This document shows positions 15,177 to 60,014 of a DNA stretch of 64,000 nucleotides, in pieces. The notes under the pieces were generated by a model that had not been told where the DNA came from, searched no databases, and was given only the letters and a program-made list of their open reading frames with translations. Position 1 is the first letter of the stretch, and every line of letters starts with the position of its first letter. Position numbers and translations under genes: made by a program. This DNA comes from Nitrososphaerota archaeon (GTDB lineage Archaea > Thermoproteota > Nitrososphaeria > Nitrososphaerales > Gagatemarchaeaceae), in the NCBI GenBank assembly GCA_027887045.1, contig JAPCJH010000002.1, forward strand, positions 134,723 through 198,722, written 5' to 3'.

Positions 15177-16451
15177 TCAGGCCCTCTTCTTTGACTTAAG
15201 TGCTACGAGTTTGTCGAACTCGGCCAAGTCCTGTTCCGCTTGCACCTCAGCGCTTTGCTGTGCCAATTTCTCGGCAACGAGTTCATGCGCCAGTTCGTCC
15301 GCGACCTTTTCGGTGGGCTTTCCGAACTTCTCAGTGAAGTAGGCATCCCACTTTGTGATTGTGGCCTGTAGGTTCTTGTTCTCGGCCAGTACAGACTGGG
15401 TGTAGGTAGAGACCCGTGTCAACTCATTTTTCGTCTCACCTAGTTTCGCTGTTGCCGCCTCAAGCTTGGTCGTGTCTTGAAGGACTAGGAGTTGTGGCTC
15501 GCCTTTGTGGTACGCCTCAACATAGTCCTGTTGGGTGTACTGGTTATTGTAGACCCCGCCCATGTAGCCACGGTGCCCCGTCATCACCTCTACCATCTCA
15601 GGTGGGACGCGGAGCTTCATCTTCGAGGTGAAGTATTTTCTGAGAAGGTGAAGGTGGTAGGCTGACCTGCCTGTCCTCTTGTCCTTAACGTACAGACCAG
15701 CCTCGCGGATTACCTGTCCGAAGGCTTTGTTCGCCGAGTCATACGTGAAGGGGAAGACTTGGTCAGCGGTTGGAGGTCTTCTTGGTGTTGTCTGCTGCCG
15801 CTCCTTCCTCACCATGTTCTTGCCGCGCCTGAAGAGCCCGCTTGCGAGGTAGTGGTCTCTTACTTTCAGCCACTCGTTGAGCGCCTCAACAGCTTCAGAG
15901 CTCAGGAAGCTGAAGTACGAGTGGCCCTCCTTTGCGGTCTCTGCCCTTACCGACACCATAGGGGCGAACGGCTCCGAACTGCCTGACTCTGGCACCAGCT
16001 TCACGTCACTCAGCGTGAGTTGTAGGGCCTCGCCGACGCGGATACCTGAACTCTCTAGGAAGAGTATCAGTGCTTTCAGCTTGATGTCCCTTGAGTGCAG
16101 GAGGATTGCGCGGAGCTTTTCCCTAGTCAGTAGGCCGTCTTCGGTTTGAGCCTCGCCCATACCCTTCGGCATCATGCCACGGAGCGCTCGCCTGTCTTTG
16201 GTTCCTAGTTCGACGTCGCAGCAGTAGAGTAGGAACTCCTTAGCGGCAGTGAGATAGGCGTGTAGGGTCCACGGAGGCTTGGTGCCCCAGCTCTGGACGA
16301 ATTTGGCTAGGTCATCGAAGCCGTCACGCTTGCCAGCTTTGAAGTCGGCAATGTACCGAGCAGCCAGTTGTTCAAGTTGGGTGAGACCAGTCTTGCCACG
16401 CCCCAAGGTGATTCCGAAGACGCAGGCCAGGAACGCCTTCACACCGCACAT
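15177..16451 (-). CDS. Tyrosine-type site-specific integrase/recombinase (phage integrase family)
   Basis: Box I ...LESSGIRVGEALQLTLSDV. HxLR motif SAYHLHLLRKYFTS. Catalytic Tyr region MTGHRGYMGGVYNNQYTQQDY. The true start may be internal to the 424-aa ORF. Confidence 0.8.
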   Translation of the reverse strand: MCGVKAFLACVFGITLGRGKTGLTQLEQLAARYIADFKAGKRDGFDDLAKFVQSWGTKPPWTLHAYLTAAKEFLLYCCDVELGTKDRRALRGMMPKGMGEAQTEDGLLTREKLRAILLHSRDIKLKALILFLESSGIRVGEALQLTLSDVKLVPESGSSEPFAPMVSVRAETAKEGHSYFSFLSSEAVEALNEWLKVRDHYLASGLFRRGKNMVRKERQQTTPRRPPTADQVFPFTYDSANKAFGQVIREAGLYVKDKRTGRSAYHLHLLRKYFTSKMKLRVPPEMVEVMTGHRGYMGGVYNNQYTQQDYVEAYHKGEPQLLVLQDTTKLEAATAKLGETKNELTRVSTYTQSVLAENKNLQATITKWDAYFTEKFGKPTEKVADELAHELVAEKLAQQSAEVQAEQDLAEFDKLVALKSKKRA

Positions 16452-20265: not shown

Positions 20266-22020
20266 GTGGCTGAAAAGGCTAAGAAAAAACGCATTTTAGT
20301 ATTGTGCGCGCTCCCTTACACGAACGCGATTCCCCACGTAGGGAACATGGCGGGTTCCCACCTCCCCGCGGATATCTTTGCCAGATATTGTAGGCTAAGA
20401 GGATACGAGACGCTGTTCGTCGGCGGGACCGACGAAAACGGGACCCCCACGGAGGTGGCGGCGCTCGAGCTTAAAGCGACTCCGCGGGAACTCACAGACG
20501 CGCTATACGCCGTCCAAAAGCGAATCTACGATTGGTTTGAGATTTCGTACGACAACTTTTCTCGCACCTCTAGGCCCATTCACCACAGGACCACCCAAGA
20601 ATTCTTTCTGAGGATCTACGGGAAAGGGTTCGTCTCTAAAGGCGTATTGAGGATGCCCTACTGCGAAAAGGATAGACTCTTCCTTCCGGACAGGTACGTC
20701 GAGGGGACCTGCCCCGTGTGTGGTTACGAACACGCGCGGGGAGACCAGTGCGAACACTGCTCTAGCCTCCTAGATTCCGACCAATTGATCAACCCGCGCT
20801 GCAAGATAGACGGGAGCGTCCCCGTGTTCAGGGACACCAAGCATCTCTTCCTCGAACTCGGGAAGCTCCAGAGCAAACTCGAAAAGTGGATCAAGAGCGA
20901 GAAGAGGTGGAGGCGTCAGGTCTCATCGCTGGCTCTTGGGTGGATCAAAGAAGGCCTGAAGAAGAGGAGCATCACCCGTGACCTGAAATGGGGAGTCCCG
21001 GTTCCCTTGGACGGGTATCGAGACAAGGTCTTCTATGTGTGGTTCGATGCGCCTATCGGATACATTTCTTCGACCAGAGAGTGGGCCGCAAAAAAGGGAA
21101 GGCCGCAGGCCTGGAAGAGGTTTTGGCTCGATGACAAGGCCAAGATTTACAATTTTCTGGGGAAGGACAACATCCCGTTCCACACGATTTTCTGGCCGGG
21201 AATGCTGATAGCCCACGGAGATTACAACCTACCGTACGACGTCGTGGGATATCAGTTTGTGAACTATGAAGGGGACAAGTTCTCAAAGAGCAGGAATTGG
21301 GGGATCTTCTGTGAACGCGTCGTAGAATCCGAACTCAGACCCGACGTCTGGAGGTACTACCTGACCTACCTGATCCCCGAGACGAAGGATAGCGAGTTCA
21401 AGTGGGAGGACTTCGAGAGCAGGGTGAACAACGAGCTGGTCGCTAACCTTGGGAACTTCGTCCACAGGACTCTGACCTTCGCGTGGAATAATTTCGGGGG
21501 GGTTGTCAGGACCCCTAAGTACGGGGAGCGCGAAAAGAACCTGGAAGGAAGGGTCGATGAGCAACTAAATCGGGTGGAGAGATGTCTCGACGAAGTAAAA
21601 CTTCGCGACGCTTTGACCGGAGTGCTGGCAATCGCAGGTCTGGGAAACGAGTATTTCCAGAGTAGCGAGCCGTGGGTACTCATCAAGAAGGACAGGGAAA
21701 GCTGCGAGAAGGTCATTTCCTTCTGCCTTCACCTCTGCAGGAAGCTTTCTGTGGTCCTTGCACCCTACACTCCGGAAGCAGCCGGTAGGATTGCATCGAT
21801 GCTAGGTCTGAGGGAAATACCCAGCTGGGACGAGATTTCGACCCGGAAAGACGAATTTCACGTTTTGAAGCCGGAGATACTGTTCAAAAAACTGGACGAG
21901 ACAGAGCTGGAGAGGGTGAGGTCGGTCGTGACGAAGAGCTACGACCTGAAAGAAATCTTCGCCGGTAGGAGGACTCAGTCGCACGGGACGAGCATTTCGA
22001 GCCCCCCCGGAAGCGAGTAG
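20266..22020 (+). CDS. metG: Methionyl-tRNA synthetase
   Basis: HIGH-region PYTNAIPHVGNMAGS. Zinc knuckle CPVCGYEH...CEHC. KMSKS variant KFSKSRNWGI. An anticodon-binding region follows. The 3' end overlaps the ftsZ-like gene by about 45 nt. Confidence 0.9.
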   Translation: MAEKAKKKRILVLCALPYTNAIPHVGNMAGSHLPADIFARYCRLRGYETLFVGGTDENGTPTEVAALELKATPRELTDALYAVQKRIYDWFEISYDNFSRTSRPIHHRTTQEFFLRIYGKGFVSKGVLRMPYCEKDRLFLPDRYVEGTCPVCGYEHARGDQCEHCSSLLDSDQLINPRCKIDGSVPVFRDTKHLFLELGKLQSKLEKWIKSEKRWRRQVSSLALGWIKEGLKKRSITRDLKWGVPVPLDGYRDKVFYVWFDAPIGYISSTREWAAKKGRPQAWKRFWLDDKAKIYNFLGKDNIPFHTIFWPGMLIAHGDYNLPYDVVGYQFVNYEGDKFSKSRNWGIFCERVVESELRPDVWRYYLTYLIPETKDSEFKWEDFESRVNNELVANLGNFVHRTLTFAWNNFGGVVRTPKYGEREKNLEGRVDEQLNRVERCLDEVKLRDALTGVLAIAGLGNEYFQSSEPWVLIKKDRESCEKVISFCLHLCRKLSVVLAPYTPEAAGRIASMLGLREIPSWDEISTRKDEFHVLKPEILFKKLDETELERVRSVVTKSYDLKEIFAGRRTQSHGTSISSPPGSE

Positions 22021-28070: not shown

Positions 28071-30386
28071 CTAGTTGATCACGGAGACGAACCGGTCGTC
28101 CTTCGAGGCCTTGCTCAGCGGGCCGATTATCGGCGTTTTCTGCCCGCAGACCTTGCAGCGGTTGTGTTTGTCCAAGTTGTAGGCAGTAATGTCGTAGCCG
28201 TTCCTCCCGATTAAGACCCTGCCGCATCCTGGGCAATAAGTACTTTCCAACGGGTGCCCAGGGACGTTACCGATGTAGACGTAGTTCAGCCCCGCCTTCT
28301 TGGCGATCTCGTAGTGTTTCTCGAGCGTTTCAACAGGCGTCCACGGCAAATCCATCATCTTGTAGTCGGGATGGAACCTCAGAAAATGGATCGGGGTGTC
28401 GGGGCCCATGTTGTCGTAGACCCAACGGGAGAGCTTCCCCGCGGTCTCGATGTTGTCTCCCACCTGAGGGACGATTAGGTCTGTTATCTCCACATGGACA
28501 TTCGTCTTGGATTTCGTTTCGAGGAGCGTCTGGTATATCGGGTCAGCGCTGGGAATCCCGATGTACCTCCTGACGAACCCGGTCTCTCCGCTCCCCTTGA
28601 AGTCCACGGTGATGCAATCCAAGAAGCTCTTCATCATGTCCACTGTCTCGGGGGTGTCGAAGCCGTTTGAGACGAATATGTTAAAGATCCCGTTCTCCCT
28701 TGCGATGTTCCCGATGTCCCTCGCGTACTCCATGAAGATTGTCGGTTGGTTGTACGTGTAAGCCAGTCCTTCGCAGCCGTAGGATTTTGCTAGTGCCACC
28801 ACCGCGGGGGGGTCCATGTCGACTCCTTCGACTTTCCTCCGCTGACTGATGTCACTGTTTTGGCAGTTACTCACGGCGAGGAAACTTGCCGTGTAGGAAT
28901 GGTCTCCTTCGACCTCCAAGTTGTAAACATAACCTGAGTAATCCTCGGAATCGATCACCCGAATCGGGACGAGCGTGAAGTCTTCCTCGACGACAAATTT
29001 TGTGGCCGCGACCGTGGAGCTTACATCTTCGGAAACAAGCATTACCCTGGTCATATAGTCGTAGTTCCTTCCTACAATTCTCCCCTCTATCTCGTATTGC
29101 GGCGCATTCTTCGATACATAGAATCTGGGGAGGAGACCAAGACGCGACATTATGTACCATACTCCTAGAGTCAGTTCCTTCGATACCGAAGTCGTTCCAA
29201 ACCATCTCTGGCCCTTTGAGCCGGTGAAGAACCCATCTCCTCGGATGCATGCTCGAAGGAAACTTTCGAGCAAGCTTTTGTCCTGCGCATGAAGGATAGT
29301 CAACGGGACTTTCTTAACATATTTGTTCTCGCCTGCTAGGTTCCTGAGGAACAGCGCAAGCGGTCCGTTCGTAAGCTCCAATCTGATGACGGAACCTTGC
29401 TGGACGCGTCTAGGTGTGAGTCCGAAAATCTTGTTGAGGAGCTTTTCAGTTCTTGCGATGAAATCAGAATCGTGATTGCCAAACGAAAATGCGACGGTCC
29501 AGCTGTTCGGTCGATTCGGTGCCCTTGTCAGGCTCCCCTCCGCACAATAAGTACCTAGGAGCTCGGCAAATTCCTCGTTCAAGTCCAAACTCGCCGGAAT
29601 CCCTTCGCTCCGGGACATACCGAACCTGACCCTACCATCTACGACGGAAACTTTCCAGACTGACTTGCGCTTCGATGGGCGAGCCACCCTCTTGACTTCT
29701 TCCTCGATTATCTGACTTGCAAAAATGTTCGTCGAGACAATCGCATCCTTTGCCCTTGGAATTGCGAGCAGATCGTTTTGCTTCAGTTCGTCCGCCCTTT
29801 TCTTTTTGAGGGTTTTGGTTTGTCCATCGAAAACAAATAATCCGTGATTCGGCGTGCATCTTACCTCCGGAAGATAGTACGGACGGATTCTCAAGAGCTT
29901 ACCAGAATATTCGTGTCTGAACACTTTCAGAACTTTGCCAAAGGCCCCATCCTTACTGAGGACGCGCAAATCGTTCGTTGGGAAGGCGACCTCGTTCGAT
30001 TGTCCTGTTTCTTCGTAGATCTGAGACATCGTTTTGATGCCCTGATCGGTGATTACGGCTGATTCTGGAGCTATACAATAAGAACATAGCCAATTGCAAC
30101 CATTTGTGGCAATTGAGAAGATTTTTGAACCGGGTTTGTAATGCACGACCGGCTTCTTCTCGATCGGGTCGATGTGCCCCGCGATTATCTTCCCGTACAC
30201 GAGTAGGTACAATTTCCCACCAACGACGCCTCTGACCCCGCAGAGCCCCACCTGCCCCTCCCCTATCTGGCACAACCTCGCGCACGCCGTGCACTGGACC
30301 TTCCCGCTCGGCAGGTTCCTGAAGAGCTCCGCCTCCTTCCCGCTCGGCTCGGTGAGACGCGTCGGAACGGAGGACATAGTTGTCAA
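28071..30386 (-). CDS. amrS: AmmeMemoRadiSam-system radical SAM enzyme (AmrS, COG1180-like) interrupted by an in-frame intein
   Basis: N-extein VQCTACARLCQIGEGQVGLCGVR...LVYGKIIAGHIDPIEKKPVVHYKPGSKIFSIATNGCNWLCSY. C-extein CQNSDISQRRK...YVYIGNVPGHPLESTYCPGCGRVLIGRNGYD...CKVCGQKTPIIG. Splicing restores CNWLCSYCQN, the radical-SAM CxxxCxxC motif. Confidence 0.8.
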   Translation of the reverse strand: MTTMSSVPTRLTEPSGKEAELFRNLPSGKVQCTACARLCQIGEGQVGLCGVRGVVGGKLYLLVYGKIIAGHIDPIEKKPVVHYKPGSKIFSIATNGCNWLCSYCIAPESAVITDQGIKTMSQIYEETGQSNEVAFPTNDLRVLSKDGAFGKVLKVFRHEYSGKLLRIRPYYLPEVRCTPNHGLFVFDGQTKTLKKKRADELKQNDLLAIPRAKDAIVSTNIFASQIIEEEVKRVARPSKRKSVWKVSVVDGRVRFGMSRSEGIPASLDLNEEFAELLGTYCAEGSLTRAPNRPNSWTVAFSFGNHDSDFIARTEKLLNKIFGLTPRRVQQGSVIRLELTNGPLALFLRNLAGENKYVKKVPLTILHAQDKSLLESFLRACIRGDGFFTGSKGQRWFGTTSVSKELTLGVWYIMSRLGLLPRFYVSKNAPQYEIEGRIVGRNYDYMTRVMLVSEDVSSTVAATKFVVEEDFTLVPIRVIDSEDYSGYVYNLEVEGDHSYTASFLAVSNCQNSDISQRRKVEGVDMDPPAVVALAKSYGCEGLAYTYNQPTIFMEYARDIGNIARENGIFNIFVSNGFDTPETVDMMKSFLDCITVDFKGSGETGFVRRYIGIPSADPIYQTLLETKSKTNVHVEITDLIVPQVGDNIETAGKLSRWVYDNMGPDTPIHFLRFHPDYKMMDLPWTPVETLEKHYEIAKKAGLNYVYIGNVPGHPLESTYCPGCGRVLIGRNGYDITAYNLDKHNRCKVCGQKTPIIGPLSKASKDDRFVSVIN
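28866..30077 (-). other. Intein (404 aa) with LAGLIDADG homing-endonuclease domain, inserted at the third Cys of the CxxxCxxC motif
   Basis: Block A CIAPESAVITDQG. Block B TPNHGLFVF (TxxH). LAGLIDADG-like ELLGTYCAEGS and FLRACIRGDGFF. Blocks F/G YVYNLEVEGDHSYTASFLAVSN followed by the +1 Cys. Boundaries were computed codon by codon. Confidence 0.75.
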
Positions 30387-33220: not shown

Positions 33221-33751
33221 TTGATTCGAGCTCTCGGGGAAGACGTCCTCCAAAGAGTTTCTGGAAATCCCGTTTCACGGTGCATACTTTATGCGCCCCC
33301 GAAGCCAGCCTTGGTCTGGGTGTTCAATCACTCGGTCTGGGTGTTCAATCACTCGTCGAATGTCGGACCCAGCCCTTCTAAGCGCGGCTATCTCTATGCC
33401 TTGGGTGCTGCAATTTTCGGGGGGACAATCCCGGCGCTTAGCAAGCTTCTTGTGGCCACCACAGGGCCGCTAGTGATCTCTTCGCTCGTTTTCCTGATAG
33501 GTGGGCTCGTTTTGCTACCGTACAAACCCAGGAAACTCCCCACGGGCAGGGGGATCCTTCTGATTCCTGCGATAGGGATAATGGGTGCGCTGGCAGCGCC
33601 GGTTCTGTACCTCTATGGAATACAGCACAGCACTGCGGTGAACGCCTCCCTCCTTACGAACAGTGAGGTTTTCTTCACAGCCCTTATCGCGTTTGTTGTC
33701 TTTCACGAGAAACTCAAGCGGAAACAAATCGTTTCATCGCAGGGTTCGTAG
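33221..33751 (+). CDS. EamA/DMT-family transporter, single-domain (probably truncated) with internal 21-bp tandem duplication
   Basis: ...RGYLYALGAAIFGGTIPALSKLL...LVFLIGGLVLLPY...GIMGALAAPVLYLYGIQHSTAVNASLL...ALIAFVVFHEKL is one EamA domain (about 4 TM) of the usual two. The N-terminal VWVFNHSVWVFNHS comes from an exact 21-bp duplication. Confidence 0.4.
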   Translation: MIRALGEDVLQRVSGNPVSRCILYAPPKPALVWVFNHSVWVFNHSSNVGPSPSKRGYLYALGAAIFGGTIPALSKLLVATTGPLVISSLVFLIGGLVLLPYKPRKLPTGRGILLIPAIGIMGALAAPVLYLYGIQHSTAVNASLLTNSEVFFTALIAFVVFHEKLKRKQIVSSQGS

Positions 33752-34198: not shown

Positions 34199-35158
34199 AT
34201 GAAGAGCGCGATGGAATGGCTGACCGAGGAAAGCCAACCCGCGGTCCGCTACCTAGCTATGCGGGACCTCCTCGAGACGAGCGAAGGCGACCTCCGCGAG
34301 GCCCGGCGAGCAATACCATCTCGGGGCTGGGTCAGAGACATACTCCGGAACCGCCTTCCAGGCGGCTACTGGGTTGACGGCGAGAACCTCTACAGGCCGA
34401 AGTACTACTCGACCAACTGGATGCTCCTCATCCTCTCAGACCTCGGGGTCACGAGAGAGCTCCCCTGGCTGGCCGAGTCGGCGGAGATGTGGAGGGACAG
34501 GTTCGCCAGGCCCGACGGTGGCTTCGACACGGGCAACCCCAAGACGAGCGAGCTCTGCCTCACGGGGAACACCGCGCGGGCGCTGGTCAAGTTCGGGTAC
34601 GCCGACGACCGACTCGTCAGGCGCGCCTTCGAATGGCTGGTGCGGAACCAGAAGCCGAACGGCGGCTGGCACTGCTGGGGGAGGAACGGTGTCATAGACG
34701 GATGGGAGGGGATGAGCGCCTTCGCGGTCTATCCGCGCCAGGAGTGGACGCGGAGCGTAAAGGCGGCGGTAGACAGGGGCTGCGAGTTCTACCTCGAGCG
34801 CGGCCTTCTCCGTCAAGGGGCGCGGTATGACCCCTGGTACAGGCTTCACTTCCCCTATCACTACTACTACGACCTCCTTGTTGGGCTGGAGTTCAACACC
34901 GAGCTCGGGAGAGGAGACGACCCACGGGCAGCGCCCGCCCTGGCGCTGCTGAAGAAGAAGCGGCGAAGGGACGGCCGCTGGCTGATGGACGCCGTACACC
35001 CGGACTATCTGAACGCGGGCAAGCTGCCGAATTGGTTCCCGAAGTACAAAGACAGGCTGAGGCCCTTCTCCCTGGAGGCCGCGGGCGAGCCGAGCAAGAT
35101 GATAACGCTGAGGGCGCTGCGCGTCCTGAAGCTCATGGGCGAGCCAGTGCCCGCCTGA
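34199..35158 (+). CDS. Prenyltransferase/squalene-oxidase-repeat (alpha/alpha-toroid) protein
   Basis: Repeats of the QxxDGGW type: WLVRNQKPNGGWHCWG, RFARPDGGFDTG, KKRRRDGRW. GC content is visibly about 65%, above the window average. Confidence 0.5.
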   Translation: MKSAMEWLTEESQPAVRYLAMRDLLETSEGDLREARRAIPSRGWVRDILRNRLPGGYWVDGENLYRPKYYSTNWMLLILSDLGVTRELPWLAESAEMWRDRFARPDGGFDTGNPKTSELCLTGNTARALVKFGYADDRLVRRAFEWLVRNQKPNGGWHCWGRNGVIDGWEGMSAFAVYPRQEWTRSVKAAVDRGCEFYLERGLLRQGARYDPWYRLHFPYHYYYDLLVGLEFNTELGRGDDPRAAPALALLKKKRRRDGRWLMDAVHPDYLNAGKLPNWFPKYKDRLRPFSLEAAGEPSKMITLRALRVLKLMGEPVPA

Positions 35159-35310: not shown

Positions 35311-35404
35311 GGTAGCCCGGCCTGGAATCGAACCAGGGTCACCGGCTCCAAAGGCCAGTATGCTTGGCCGCTACAATCGGCAGAGTGATCTTCCACCGGG
35401 CTGC
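35311..35404 (-). tRNA. tRNA-Gln(UUG)-like gene with about 18 extra nt in the 5' half (possible non-canonical intron) or tRNA-derived att remnant
   Basis: Minus strand reads AGCCCGG-TG-[GAAGATCACTCTGCCGATTGTAGCGGCCAAGCATA]-CTGGC-CTTTGGA-GCCGG-TGAC-CCTGG-TTCGATT-CCAGG-CCGGGCT-A-CCA. The acceptor is perfect 7 bp. The anticodon arm has U33, UUG and R37. The T-arm and encoded CCA are canonical. The D-region is 18 nt too long to fold canonically. Confidence 0.4.
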
Positions 35405-35507
35405 TTCCGGGCCGAGTGTCCGCGGCTGTATGAGGTTAAAAGATTACTGAGCGTCCGTCTGATTGCACCAAAAGCACACTCGTTCAACCGAAACAGCTGT
35501 TGACATT

Positions 35508-36572
35508 TTAGGTGTGTCCATGCTCAGTGTTCAGAAATCTTGCGATAATTTCAATTGGGTCCTCCATTGAAGTAAGGACCCTCGAAGCCCTTCGCGCGAA
35601 CACTTTGCCAACTCCCGGCTTCAAGAAAGATCTCGCGAGTTTGGCCATGGCATTTTCTGTTCGTGCCTTTTTCAGAAGACCAACCGAGATCAGGTATTTT
35701 TCGGTGTACAGGTTTCCTTGAAATGCGGAGATTGTCGGGACGCCCATGAGCGCCGCTTCAGCGGTCATCGTTCCGCCGAGTCCAATGAAGACGCTTGCAC
35801 GCCCCAGTAATGATGTGCCATCGACAGCCTCCTCCGGGACTTCGAACGAGGCGCCGAACATATCTTTGACGTGTTGGAGCTGGTCGTCATATCTGCATAG
35901 CGCGATGCGCTTTGAATCGGGGAAATCCTTTGCAATCCTTCGAAGAATGCTGTCGACCCATCCCAGATCTTTCCCCTTCATATATGGCGCATAACTTTCC
36001 TCAAGTCTGACGATAATCGTCTTTTCCCGAGAAGACGGTTGCGACGACATCTTGATTCTCTTCAGCCATGCCGCGGGGTCGAGCGCACGGTAACGCGTGA
36101 TCTGTTTCCTTTTGATTGCGAAAGGAGCCCACGCGCGGTGGGGAATGACCCACGGTGTAAAGAGATGACGAGTCAGTGGGAGGGAGAGCTTCCCGGCGAT
36201 CGCAGAGTGGGGCGAATCATTCACTGCGTAGTGTGGGACGGACAACCCGAATGAAATCCTGGCGCAGTCTGCGGAAGCGACCGAGACAGAAAAATCCGGA
36301 GCGAATTCCTCGATGATAGGCAGAAGTTGGCGCTCGCGTTCGATACTGGCCGCCAGCTGATCCTTGGGATCCTTCCCACCTCTCTCCCCGACGTAGGTCA
36401 GATCGACTCCATGCATCTTCGAGAGTTGCTCGACTTCGCGATATCGCCTAGAAGTCGCGAGAATCTCAAAGCCTCCGGCACGCAGGGTCTCGATGAGAGG
36501 GCGGAAGAAGAGGACTTGTTTTGGCGTCAGTATTTCGATCCACCCTCTATGCGAAGACACGACTGGATTCAC
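35508..36572 (-). CDS. DUF354-family protein (GT-B-fold, glycosyltransferase/epimerase-like)
   Basis: N-terminus WIEILTPKQVLFFRPLIETLRAGGFEILATSR matches the DUF354 consensus (KIWIDI.n.pHV.FFKPII.EL.krGHEV.IT.R). 354 aa. Confidence 0.65.
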   Translation of the reverse strand: MNPVVSSHRGWIEILTPKQVLFFRPLIETLRAGGFEILATSRRYREVEQLSKMHGVDLTYVGERGGKDPKDQLAASIERERQLLPIIEEFAPDFSVSVASADCARISFGLSVPHYAVNDSPHSAIAGKLSLPLTRHLFTPWVIPHRAWAPFAIKRKQITRYRALDPAAWLKRIKMSSQPSSREKTIIVRLEESYAPYMKGKDLGWVDSILRRIAKDFPDSKRIALCRYDDQLQHVKDMFGASFEVPEEAVDGTSLLGRASVFIGLGGTMTAEAALMGVPTISAFQGNLYTEKYLISVGLLKKARTENAMAKLARSFLKPGVGKVFARRASRVLTSMEDPIEIIARFLNTEHGHT

Positions 36573-36615
36573 GGTTTGTGGGCTGGGGCGTCGACGTTTC
36601 GGACTTTATTTAACC

Positions 36616-36625
36616 AATTTTGTCG
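36616..36625 (+). promoter_or_regulatory. TATA-box-like element upstream of 36672 GTG start
   Basis: ggactTTATTTAAcc lies about 50 nt upstream of the proposed start of the dehydrogenase-like gene, in the 100-nt divergent intergenic region. Confidence 0.3.
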
Positions 36626-36671
36626 CCGAGATAATCAAAGTATAATTAGACTTCAAAGAAACGGACGCTCA

Positions 36672-37817
36672 GTGCCCAAGAACTCTGCGAGACCCAAGGT
36701 CGCCATGTACGGTTTGACGACCGAAGGCTACGCGCTGGCCGCGAAATTCGTCGAGAGGGCGGACGTAACGGTCGTTGATGAGACGCTTCAAATGGCCCTT
36801 GAGCTCAATTCTGCGTTTCTAAAGAAGAACCAGAATCTGGAGGAACTCATGGGGAGCGAACCGCTGATGAGTTTCAAACCCATCGAGCAGGTCCTCAGCG
36901 ATTCACAGATCATCTTCTTCACGCCGAAGCTCCGGAGACCTTCTGATGAATCTCTCATCGAAGCGAGCTCTAAACTCCGGGACCTCTCCAAGTACATTGT
37001 GAAGGGGTCAGTCTTGGTGAACACGCTGCCGACGGGTCCCGGTGGGAACGCTGAGAACATCATGGTCATCGAGAAACAGACCGGGCTCGGGATCGGGGAT
37101 ACGCTCGCGTATGCCTATGTCCCCCTGCGGGCAGGGAGCACAGACGCCCAGACGGTCGCTTACGCGGGAGCCGGCGAAGAGAACCCCCTTGAGATTCTGG
37201 GTTTCAAGCCCAACGCCCAAAACATCTTCGCAGCAGAGCTCGCCTACGCGTCGTCCGTGCTGATTCAGGCCGTGGGGATGGCGACGGAAGTGGAGTTGAT
37301 GAAGAGGGCACGGGAAGCGAGAGTCAAGTTCTTGGGGAGAGGGGAGGCGTTCTATTTCGATGAACTGGCCCAACACGTACACGAGCTGAGGGCGGTGCAA
37401 TCCAGTGAAGAAGCGGGTGAATCAATAACGTACCTCGCAGGTGCGGCACTGAAAAGCGTGGAGAACTATGTAAGATATGTGGTTGACGAAACTCGAGAGA
37501 TGTTGAAGGAGATGGAGCTCAAAGCGAGCAGGACAAAAGTACTGATTCTTTGGACTCTCGATCGATACGAGATGAGGGGAGACAGGCTTCAGCTCGCCGA
37601 AAGCATAAGCACCAGGCTGAAGGATTACGTAACGGACGTCGTCGTTCACAGCGGTGCCAAACTTGCTGGTGGGTCAGACATCTTCGATTCCCAAAAGCAT
37701 AACGTCGCTGTAGTGTGTTCAAAGAGAGACTATGAGGGCGTCAGGGAGGCCCGCAAAGGTCAACGTGGTTTCGAGCTCTCGCTCCTCCAAGCGACGGCGG
37801 ACCTCAGAAGGGAGTAG
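36672..37817 (+). CDS. Nucleotide-sugar dehydrogenase family paralog with degenerate NAD-binding and catalytic motifs (probable pseudoenzyme)
   Basis: KVAMYGLTTEGYALAAKF stands where the Rossmann IAVIGLGYVGLPLA belongs; GxGxxG is lost. The catalytic PEF region reads AYVPLRAGS. The C-terminal UDPG_MGDP_dh_C-like KVLILWTLDRYEMRGDRLQLAESISTRLKDYVTDVVVHSGAKLAG is retained. The first 115 codons of the track ORF overlap DUF354 and are rejected. Confidence 0.45.
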   Translation: MPKNSARPKVAMYGLTTEGYALAAKFVERADVTVVDETLQMALELNSAFLKKNQNLEELMGSEPLMSFKPIEQVLSDSQIIFFTPKLRRPSDESLIEASSKLRDLSKYIVKGSVLVNTLPTGPGGNAENIMVIEKQTGLGIGDTLAYAYVPLRAGSTDAQTVAYAGAGEENPLEILGFKPNAQNIFAAELAYASSVLIQAVGMATEVELMKRAREARVKFLGRGEAFYFDELAQHVHELRAVQSSEEAGESITYLAGAALKSVENYVRYVVDETREMLKEMELKASRTKVLILWTLDRYEMRGDRLQLAESISTRLKDYVTDVVVHSGAKLAGGSDIFDSQKHNVAVVCSKRDYEGVREARKGQRGFELSLLQATADLRRE

Positions 37818-37832
37818 TCGAATAACCCTAAA

Positions 37833-38798
37833 TTGCCGTCAGGAGCCCGCGAGAAACAGAACATGCCCAAGGTCGCTGTCATTGGCACGGGCGGGTGGGG
37901 GAAGAACCACGTCAGGGTTCTGAACGAACTTGGGTCACTAGCAGCAGTTTGCGACGCCGACAAGGATCGGTTGAAGGAGTATTCGGAAAAATATCGAGTT
38001 CCGGGTTACGCCACTGTGGACTCTCTCCTTGATGGGGAAGCGCTGGACGGGGTGGCCGTCTGCACACCCGCGTCCACCCACTTCAGCATCGCCTCCAAGA
38101 CTCTCAACGCCGGAATCAACACGTTCGTCGAAAAACCGATGACGACAACGACCGCTGACGCCGAGAAATTGATAGATATCGCGAAGAAGGCAAGAAGAAT
38201 CCTCACGGTCGGATTCATCGAGAGGTTCAACCCCGCCATTGCGGAGCTGAGGAAAAGAATCGCTTCGGGTGAATTGGGGAAGCTGATCCTTCTCGAGTTC
38301 CATCGGGAGAACAGGAGAGGGGACAACATAGTCGATGTCGGCATCGTGAAGGACGCGTCAGTTCATGACATCGACACCGCGAGGTGGCTTTTCGAAGAGG
38401 AGCCGAACATAGTCTTCGGGCGGGTCGGCCAGGTTAAGTCCCCGCACGAGGACTTCGCGACGATCCTGCTGGGCTTCAAGGAACAGAGGACCGCTTTTAT
38501 TGCGAGCAACTGGGTGACACCGAGCAGGGTGAGGACTTTGACCGCGGTTTTCACAAATGGCGTCGTAACCGTGGATTTTGTGACCCAGGAAACGCAGATT
38601 CACACGGAAGAAGGGGTTCGCGTTCCGAAGACCGTCTTTCAGGAGCCCCTTATGCTCGAGGTGAAAGAGTTTCTTGCCGCATTGCGGGAGAAGAGGCGGC
38701 CTATGGTGACGGGAGAGGACGGTCTGAAAACGATGGTCATCGCGGAGGCGGTCCTGGCTTCCAGCCAGTCTGGCATGCCGATCATAATGAGAGCGTGA
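37833..38798 (+). CDS. Gfo/Idh/MocA-family NAD-dependent sugar oxidoreductase (WbpB-like)
   Basis: KVAVIGTGGWGKNHVRVLNELGSLAAVCDADKDRLKEY...VCTPASTHFSIASKTLNAGINTFVEKPMT. Confidence 0.8.
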   Translation: MPSGAREKQNMPKVAVIGTGGWGKNHVRVLNELGSLAAVCDADKDRLKEYSEKYRVPGYATVDSLLDGEALDGVAVCTPASTHFSIASKTLNAGINTFVEKPMTTTTADAEKLIDIAKKARRILTVGFIERFNPAIAELRKRIASGELGKLILLEFHRENRRGDNIVDVGIVKDASVHDIDTARWLFEEEPNIVFGRVGQVKSPHEDFATILLGFKEQRTAFIASNWVTPSRVRTLTAVFTNGVVTVDFVTQETQIHTEEGVRVPKTVFQEPLMLEVKEFLAALREKRRPMVTGEDGLKTMVIAEAVLASSQSGMPIIMRA

Positions 38799-38805
38799 CC
38801 ACGTC

Positions 38806-39300
38806 GTGGCCAAGAAGTCGCGGAAGATCATCAACTTTGTGGCTCCCGACGCTAGGTTGGGAAAGAACGTCAGGATTTGGCACTTTTCGTACGTCGGTTC
38901 GCGCTCCGTGATAGGGGACAACGTCAAGATCGGCTCGCTTTCGCACGTGGACTATGGCGTCAGAATCGGGAGGGACACGATGATAGAGGGCAACGTCTAC
39001 ATCCCCCCTCTTTCTCGAATCGGGAAGAACGTCTTCATCGGCCCCGGAGCAGTCTTGACAAACGACCCGTACCCTCCGAGCAAAAGACTGACCGGTGTGA
39101 TCATCGAAGATCACGCCGTCCTGGGTGCTCGGTGCGTCATCAAGGCGGGCGTCCGGATCGGCAGGGGTGCCGTAGTAGCCATGGGCTCGGTCGTCACCAA
39201 GGATGTTCCACCTGGGAAGCTCGTGATGGGAGTGCCCGCAAGGGTCGTCTACGAGAGAACGCTCTACGACAAAAAACGGTCTAAGTGGGAGACGGGATGA
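38806..39300 (+). CDS. Hexapeptide-repeat (LbH) sugar N-acetyltransferase (WbpD-like)
   Basis: GTG start. Repeated hexapeptides GKNVRIWHFSYVGSRSVIGDNVKIGSLSHVDYGVRIGRDTMIEGNVYI...GPGAVLTND...GARCVIKAGVRIGRGAVVAMGSVV. Confidence 0.8.
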   Translation: MAKKSRKIINFVAPDARLGKNVRIWHFSYVGSRSVIGDNVKIGSLSHVDYGVRIGRDTMIEGNVYIPPLSRIGKNVFIGPGAVLTNDPYPPSKRLTGVIIEDHAVLGARCVIKAGVRIGRGAVVAMGSVVTKDVPPGKLVMGVPARVVYERTLYDKKRSKWETG

Positions 39301-59766: not shown

Positions 59767-59854
59767 TGGTGCGGGGGGTGGGATTCGAACCCACGAACCC
59801 CTAAGGGATGGGAGCCTCAGTCCCACGCCGTTGACCAGGCTGGGCGACCCCCGC
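59767..59854 (-). tRNA. tRNA-Leu (anticodon GAG), class II with long variable arm, CCA encoded
   Basis: GCGGGGG-TC-GCCCAGCCTGGTCAACGGCG-TGGGA-CTGAGGC-TCCCA-TCCCTTAGGGGTTC-GTGGG-TTCGAAT-CCCAC-CCCCCGC-A-CCA. Confidence 0.85.
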
Positions 59855-59940
59855 GCAAAGCTGGCCGAGCTTTTCAATTCTAAAAACTCTTCCGAAAAGG
59901 AACAAGGATTTAACAGCGGGGTCATTCGGGTCTCAATTGT

Positions 59941-60014
59941 GCCGGCGTAGCTCAGCCTGGCAGAGCACACGCCTCGTAAGCGTGGGGTCCCGTGTTCAAC
60001 TCACGGCGCCGGCT
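59941..60014 (+). tRNA. tRNA-Thr (anticodon CGU)
   Basis: GCCGGCG-TA-GCTCAGCCTGGCAGAGC-A-CACGC-CTCGTAA-GCGTG-GGGTC-CCGTG-TTCAACT-CACGG-CGCCGGC-T. Confidence 0.85.

Follow-up and report, generated by a model that had tools for sequence, protein, structure and literature searches.

The question raised by this locus is whether an element that has the parts of a tRNA-Gln gene, with too many nucleotides in its D-region, is a working gene interrupted by an intron, the remains of a gene, or an RNA that keeps its additional bases. It lies in a 64,000-nucleotide stretch of archaeal DNA, analyzed as a whole and hereafter called the window, and had been described in a first-pass annotation as a tRNA-Gln-like element at 35311-35404 with a canonical 3' two-thirds and an 18-nt expansion of the D-arm. 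The element is real, but its true span is the 93 nt on the minus strand from A1 (35402) to the last A of the CCA (35310); the earlier limits took in two surplus 5' bases and missed that last A. The expansion is likewise real but measures 17 nt, and positions 10 to 25 occupy 34 nt instead of 17, not the 35 nt first counted. As to the host, the MetRS gene at 20266-22020 encodes a protein with 100% identity to MDA4128691.1, which comes from a Thaumarchaeota/Nitrososphaerota MAG; the next best matches, at 69%, are from Nitrososphaerales. The locus is, with high probability, a functional tRNA-Gln(UUG) gene of a Nitrososphaerota archaeon, carrying a 17-nt protein-spliced intron between nucleotides 10 and 11. 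Noncanonical thaumarchaeal tRNA introns are an already known kind of element, and this intron is ordinary for the Thaumarchaeota; what may be new is confined to the leader, where a copy of the tRNA 5' end is conserved.

Read 5' to 3', the minus strand from 35402 to 35310 is AGCCCGGUGG AAGAUCACUCUGCCGAU UGUAGCGGCCAAGCAUA CUGGC CUUUGGA GCCGG UGAC, continuing directly with CCUGG UUCGAUU CCAGG CCGGGCU A CCA. The acceptor stem AGCCCGG/CCGGGCU with its encoded CCA, the T-arm CCUGG-UUCGAUU-CCAGG and the anticodon arm CUGGC-CUUUGGA-GCCGG with anticodon UUG are present as first described, together with a discriminator A. The canonical part does include the 3' two-thirds but reaches further 5', since the Rfam match takes in the D-arm, and UGUAGCGGCCAAGCAUA is an ordinary archaeal tRNA-Gln D-arm. 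That match, made by the Rfam tRNA model (RF00005) on unspliced DNA, covers 35321-35377(-), scores 29.2 bits where the gathering score is 29, and spans model positions 9-63, which comprise the complete D-arm, anticodon arm and T-arm. ARAGORN, which had been suggested as a check, rejects the unspliced tRNA-Gln gene and reports only tRNA-Leu(GAG) and tRNA-Thr(CGU) in the window. Once 35392-35376 is removed in silico, it calls tRNA-Gln(ttg), 75 nt, with a canonical cloverleaf whose D-stem consists of G10-U25, U11-A24, G12-C23 and U13-G22. The expected tRNA landmarks are in place too: G18G19 in the D-arm, U33 and a purine at 37 in the anticodon loop, and a T-loop of the form UUCRAnY. The tRNA-Leu(GAG) (-) and tRNA-Thr(CGU) (+) genes form a divergent, intronless pair at 59767-60014, and CCA is encoded in neither. 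Across the full 64-kb window, an Rfam scan with permissive settings revealed no further tRNA-like or other credible RNA.

Table 1. Parts of the tRNA-Gln gene and the genes upstream of it, in window coordinates
Feature	Position	Strand	Basis or remark
TATA-like box TTTTAA, presumed archaeal promoter	35436..35441	-	sequence; centre ~36-37 nt 5' of A1
Leader copy GGCCCGG of the 5' acceptor strand	35407..35413	-	complement of 3' acceptor strand CCGGGCU
Spacer AAGC between leader copy and A1	35403-35406	-	sequence
Exon 1, tRNA positions 1-10, AGCCCGGUGG	35393..35402	-	same as 5' end of intronless orthologues
C5-U8, 5' strand of BHB central helix	35398-35395	-	pair counts
G9 and G10, bases 1-2 of 5' bulge (exon 1)		-	pair counts
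17-nt intron AAGAUCACUCUGCCGAU	35376..35392	-	deletion gives canonical tRNA-Gln
A35392, base 3 of 5' bulge (intron)	35392	-	
Inner hairpin AGA-UCAC-UCU (intron)	35391-35382	-	covariation in orthologues
GCCG, 3' strand of central helix (intron)	35381-35378	-	
A35377 and U35376, bases 1-2 of 3' bulge (intron)	35377-35376	-	
Exon 2, tRNA positions 11-73: rest of D-arm, anticodon arm, 4-nt variable loop, T-arm, 3' acceptor strand, discriminator A	35313..35375	-	Rfam tRNA match; ARAGORN cloverleaf of spliced sequence
Anticodon UUG	35351-35349	-	
3' CCA, encoded in genome	35310..35312	-	sequence
DUF354 gene	35508-36572		upstream of tRNA-Gln
Unknown 496-aa ORF	36327-37817		upstream of tRNA-Gln
GFO/IDH/MocA oxidoreductase	37833-38798		upstream of tRNA-Gln
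Small ORF	38791-39297		upstream of tRNA-Gln

The position of the insert was fixed by comparison. A scan of one genome per GTDB species with a pattern of the tRNA-Gln D-arm and anticodon loop returned at least 120 loci. In at least 50 other tRNA-Gln(UUG) loci, 16-31 additional nucleotides are inserted at exactly position 10/11. Among the matches listed, about 49 of the intron-bearing loci are of the Nitrososphaeraceae type (mostly Nitrososphaeraceae, Nitrososphaera, Nitrosocosmicus and Nitrosopolaris) and one belongs to a Methanomethylicia MAG. The orthologous gene is present in Nitrososphaera viennensis and N. gargensis. At least 70 listed loci have no insert; these come from Bathyarchaeia, Thermoplasmata, DPANN, some Nitrososphaeria and others. 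The intronless genes read AGCCCGGTGG|TGTAG with identical exons, which fixes the exon junction of the window gene at 10/11. A cut at 9/10, leaving U10, is implied by the Rfam alignment; it was rejected on account of G10 in the intronless orthologues and of the symmetry of the splice motif, both of which give 10/11.

The Methanomethylicia gene (L070:3700-3850, JAWBQF010000001.1) has a 10/11 intron of 16 nt, AAGUUUACCUGCCGAU, close to that of the window, and has the leader copy as well. Its presence implies that the 10/11 intron is either older than Nitrososphaeria or has been transferred. The same tRNA-Gln(UUG) gene contains a second insert of about 14 nt in or beside the anticodon loop. Five further loci from DPANN and other archaea (L035, L059, L088, L097 and L114) have long inserts directly after the anticodon loop; these are canonical-position introns, so the pattern scan sampled several intron types.

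The insert lies between G10 and U11 and splits the D-stem there. A motif of the bulge-helix-bulge (BHB) type, defined as two 3-nt bulges flanking a 4-bp helix (PMC5829648), can be modeled around it. C5-G6-G7-U8 of exon 1 pairs with G-C-C-G of the intron to give a 4-bp central helix, the 5' cut falls after G9-G10 and the 3' cut after A-U, each 2 nt 3' of its strand of the central helix. The 4-bp helix of canonical introns contains the first two anticodon bases (PMC4090602), which likewise puts each cut 2 nt 3' of a helix strand; the symmetry of the splice sites therefore fits the BHB geometry of PMC4090602 and PMC5829648. In the model, the intron hairpin AGA-UCAC-UCU closes off the 5' bulge G-G-A. 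On the other side, the 3' bulge A-U-U is followed by an outer helix of at most 1-2 bp (C4-G12, or C3-G12 with G2-U13), which makes the motif a relaxed HBh' rather than a strict hBHBh'. In many orthologues the CC of the inner helix is a possible partner for G9 and G10; the helix then runs on without a 5' bulge, a form sometimes favored in minimum-free-energy folds. The two hairpins first proposed for the region (GGCCA...UGGCC and GCCG...CGGC) proved to be alternative pairings that borrow bases of the D-loop and anticodon stem, and they have no comparative support.

The pairs of the modeled motif are conserved across the related genes. Pair statistics were taken over 49 distinct intron-bearing sequences among the matches listed, the window included, which amount to few independent observations, namely one family, the window and one Methanomethylicia locus, or roughly three lineages. 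The partner of the exon strand is GCCG in 32 of the listed sequences, GCUG in 12, GUCG in three, and ACUG and GCCA in one each. All 4 bp of the central helix can form in 48 of the 49, with one-sided changes (C to U, G to A) that preserve the pairs. At least three consecutive closing pairs of the inner hairpin occur in 45 of the 49 listed sequences, as against 7% of shuffled cores. When the sequences were aligned by reference to the splice sites and the variable loops were cut out, 97.7% of pair cells held standard pairs, compared with 23-67% when the partners are slid. For the inner helix, 95.6% of cells are paired and compensatory double changes are seen in all three pairs; the covariation score observed in this alignment was reached by none of 500 shuffles. 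The loops of the insert are free in both sequence and length, as expected of an intron, and what is constrained is GCCG, the bulge A and the closure of the helix. The first suggestion of a noncanonical intron in the D-region is thus supported by a modeled BHB-type motif, a splice point at 10/11, covariation in about 50 of the related genes listed and a Nitrososphaerota host.

The same data bear on whether the insert might be retained, either in a mature tRNA with an enlarged D-region or in a tRNA-like RNA of another role. On thermodynamic grounds, a cloverleaf-like fold that accommodates the insert as one more hairpin is reasonable. Nevertheless, the length of the insert (16-31 nt) and its loop vary freely and only the parts needed for BHB geometry are constrained, which is typical of archaeal introns; moreover, the D-stem is broken between G10 and U11, and there are intronless orthologues with identical exons. 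Retention is highly unlikely.

Still less likely is that the element is a pseudo-tRNA, or an att-site fragment of a mobile element targeting tRNA-Gln, with the 17 nt as decay or a junction scar. Such a reading could draw on the lack of an ARAGORN call and an Rfam score barely at threshold, and also on two neighbors. One is the ORF at 34199-35158 (+), which had been singled out as anomalously GC-rich; it does exceed the window mean, but only modestly (62% versus about 55% G+C), it has a weak match to the prenyltransferase/squalene-hopene-cyclase (SQHop) C-terminal repeat, and it bears no mobile-element signature. It has no counterpart in related tRNA-Gln loci, and nothing ties it to the tRNA. 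The other is a tyrosine recombinase of the Phage_integrase family (15177-16451, -), the only integrase-like ORF of the window. It is about 19 kb away from the tRNA-Gln gene, beyond the core genes for MetRS, AdoHcy hydrolase and glycine cleavage, with no tRNA or att repeat identified beside it. Against decay or a scar stand the interrupted architecture and promoter, conserved in about 50 of the species listed with compensatory changes in the insert, and exons that are intact and splice to a perfect tRNA. No second copy of the tRNA-Gln 3' 28-mer occurs in the window when 3 mismatches are allowed, and no relevant direct repeats were found in the window. The earlier ideas of a split-tRNA leftover or an integrase target remnant are accordingly not supported, given the lack of a repeated tRNA 3' end in the window and the distance of its only integrase-like ORF.

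The upstream flank also speaks against the proposal that foreign DNA was inserted at this tRNA. The string of four genes from 35508 to 39297, beginning with DUF354 (Table 1), is found beside tRNA-Gln in loci of Nitrososphaeraceae as well, with 33-64% amino-acid identity, which indicates that the tRNA-Gln locus is ancestral. The four genes may form a sugar-modification cluster. When metagenomes were scanned with the DUF354 protein, three distant loci (37-38% identity) came up, and the two examined, L121 and L122, have no downstream tRNA-Gln. With no att repeat found in the window, no adjacent integrase and intact exons, the locus is neither a pseudogene nor an integration scar. Elsewhere in the window, the radical-SAM ORF at 28071-30386 (-) is split by an intein that includes a homing-endonuclease domain of the LAGLIDADG type (Pfam Intein_splicing, LAGLIDADG_3 and Radical_SAM), and a perfect-register tandem duplication of a 21-nt unit (33310-33351, +; 95% identical), which would specify a 7-aa repeat, lies inside an EamA-like transporter ORF (33221-33751).

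A spliced tRNA-Gln gene of this design poses a conflict of its own: C5-G7 of the one 5' strand are needed both for the BHB helix and for the acceptor stem. Consensus folding of 21 sequences with RNAalifold prefers the ordinary acceptor stem and pairs the intron GCCG with YGGC of the D-loop. This GCCG:YGGC pairing is a real competitor in the consensus fold, but it was rejected as the splicing structure, the 3' splice site then lying in a hairpin loop with no BHB.

The region just upstream of the gene contains a second copy of the contested strand. G[C/U]CCGG, a copy of acceptor positions 2-7, is found 1-4 nt 5' of A1 in all 51 listed intron-bearing genes, the window included, where the leader reads GGCCCGG-AAGC-A1 (35413-35403, -). 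In one locus (L089) the copy has one inserted T. Only 1 of the 70 listed intronless genes has the copy, as a partial chance match, and it is missing from intronless Nitrososphaeria with the same acceptor stem (L029, L074 and L106). As depicted by information content, leader positions -7 to -2 are invariant (2 bits each) between poorly conserved flanks, and the rare C-to-U variant retains a G-U pair.

The promoter, too, is conserved: Nitrososphaeraceae orthologues have a conserved TATA box of the type (A/T)AACATTATAAAG at -37 to -32. The distance from TATA box to start is usually about 26 nt in archaea. This spacing predicts a transcription start of the orthologues at about -8/-7, the first base of the leader copy; the TTTTAA box of the window likewise predicts a start near -11, again at the copy. 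In the intronless tRNA-Thr gene of the window, the TATA-like box is about 7 nt nearer to the tRNA than is that of tRNA-Gln.

Predicted folding changes sharply with the leader. For the central helix, the median predicted probability is 0.58 when the native 14-nt leader is present (0.98 for the window), 0.001 with the leader removed and 0.06 with a shuffled leader. That of the acceptor stem is the reverse, with a median of 0.007 with the native leader and 0.98 without it, and pairing between the leader copy and the 3' acceptor strand has a predicted median of 0.99 across orthologues. For the window, a fixed-register measure of this leader pairing is 0.02, yet its minimum-free-energy structure still pairs the leader with the 3' acceptor strand. 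Predicted BHB probabilities range from 0.00 to 1.00 among orthologues and are bimodal. Taken with the preference of RNAalifold, this spread implies that the leader makes the BHB conformer accessible, not dominant.

These models point to the leader as a putative folding aid for splicing. The copy may be a selected decoy of the 5' acceptor strand, which would pair with the 3' strand, free the true 5' strand for the splice motif, and be displaced and cut off after splicing; we put the chance of this somewhat short of even. A substantial minority of the probability falls to the case in which the intron is real and the leader GCCCGG is no folding aid, being instead an initiator or promoter-proximal element, a determinant for RNase P or another protein, or a relic of the intron's origin. 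The copy is located at the predicted transcription start, so that a role in transcription is possible. The acceptor stem is invariant in the whole set, which puts pairing of the leader with the 3' strand outside the reach of covariation and leaves no such signal to draw on; consensus folding does not favor the leader-paired conformer, and the association comes from few independent lineages. Arguing for a folding role, on the other hand, the related intronless Nitrososphaeria with the same acceptor sequence have no copy, the copy is the exact complement of the 3' acceptor strand with a sole variant that retains a wobble pair, and it persists where the spacer differs, as it does in the window (4 nt) and the Methanomethylicia gene. 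The rise in BHB-helix probability with native leaders, far greater than with shuffled ones, points in the same direction.

Two other origins of the copy were considered and rejected. A target-site duplication does not apply, as the repeats do not flank the intron. Nor is the copy an alternative 5' exon: the base before it is variable, so that A1:U72 would be lost. A scan of all 121 sequences for T-arm plus acceptor, meant to reveal duplication of the 5' acceptor strand in further tRNA genes, yielded no informative cases, the 8-kb loci holding too few other tRNAs. No description of such a leader element was found in the searchable literature, which does not in itself prove it new.

Under the decoy reading, the transcript is predicted to start with GGCCCGG, which would pair with the 3' acceptor strand and free the 5' strand for the BHB; the copy is proposed to resolve in this way the conflict that arises in the precursor from the 5' strand being shared by BHB helix and acceptor stem. 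In the proposed splicing pathway itself, C5-U8 would pair with the GCCG near the intron's 3' end as the 4-bp central helix, with G9-G10-A as the 3-nt bulge under the short intron hairpin and A-U-U11 as the matching 3' bulge or junction, an HBh' form. Judging from what is known of the enzyme families, an (alpha-beta)2 splicing endonuclease would cleave both strands 2 nt 3' of the central helix, a ligase would connect G10 and U11, and RNase P would then trim the leader to give a standard 76-nt tRNA. On the decoy reading, once the intron is out, the leader copy would give way to the full 7-bp acceptor stem, and cleavage by RNase P would follow.

The gene is very likely the tRNA-Gln(UUG) of the organism. 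Standard finders such as ARAGORN miss it, and if it were left unannotated the genome would seem to have no decoder of CAA. It shows how a D-arm intron can use the acceptor strand for its splice motif, and the co-occurrence of leader copy and intron provides a simple case of a precursor RNA bearing its own folding aid, should that role hold. If the copy is a decoy, the precursor has a built-in conformational switch that licenses an intron where BHB and tRNA fold are mutually exclusive, and the order of splicing first and RNase P second may be enforced. Confirmation of the leader's role would help to explain how noncanonical introns can spread to fold-disrupting positions, and would offer an extra signal for tRNA-gene finders.

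The intron has close parallels among the noncanonical (non-37/38) BHB introns that tRNAscan-SE 2.0 and SPLITS detect in Thaumarchaeota/Nitrososphaerales and Crenarchaeota. Such introns, along with a broad-specificity (alpha-beta)2 endonuclease, are documented for Thaumarchaeota (PMC8450103, PMC4090602, PMC5829648), to which the (alpha-beta)2 EndA is assigned (PMC4090602, PMC5829648). tRNAscan-SE 2.0 includes a dedicated thaumarchaeal BHB model (PMC8450103), and three Nitrososphaerales genomes have 53 noncanonical introns in 141 tRNA genes, about 18 per genome (PMC8450103 supplement). Like them, the window gene has a short intron, probably protein-spliced, that lies outside the anticodon loop and is modeled with a 4-bp central helix, a 3-nt bulge and a relaxed HBh' form; its host clade, too, has (alpha-beta)2 EndA. 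It differs in position, 10/11 being absent from those given in PMC4090602 (3/4, 20/21, 22/23, 25/26, 29/30, 30/31, 45/46, 53/54, 56/57 and 59/60), a list left open-ended by an 'etc.'. It differs also in that its BHB helix uses the 5' acceptor strand, which makes BHB and acceptor stem mutually exclusive, and in the conserved leader copy that accompanies the intron.

With the canonical 37/38 intron (strict hBHBh') the window intron has in common the modeled cleavage geometry, the presumed enzymes and a length within the usual range, archaeal tRNA introns having a median length of 12-25 nt (PMC4090602). In the canonical case, however, the tRNA body keeps its fold and uses its anticodon stem as the outer helix, whereas in the window gene hardly any outer helix exists and the mature fold would have to be partly undone to present the motif. 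A third comparison is with the split and permuted tRNA genes of Nanoarchaeum, Caldivirga and Thermofilum, in which sequence outside the mature tRNA likewise builds a splicing-competent structure. In those genes leader and trailer pair as the BHB itself and are removed by EndA, whereas the window gene is contiguous, and all that is proposed for its leader is sequestration of the 3' acceptor strand before removal, presumably by RNase P.
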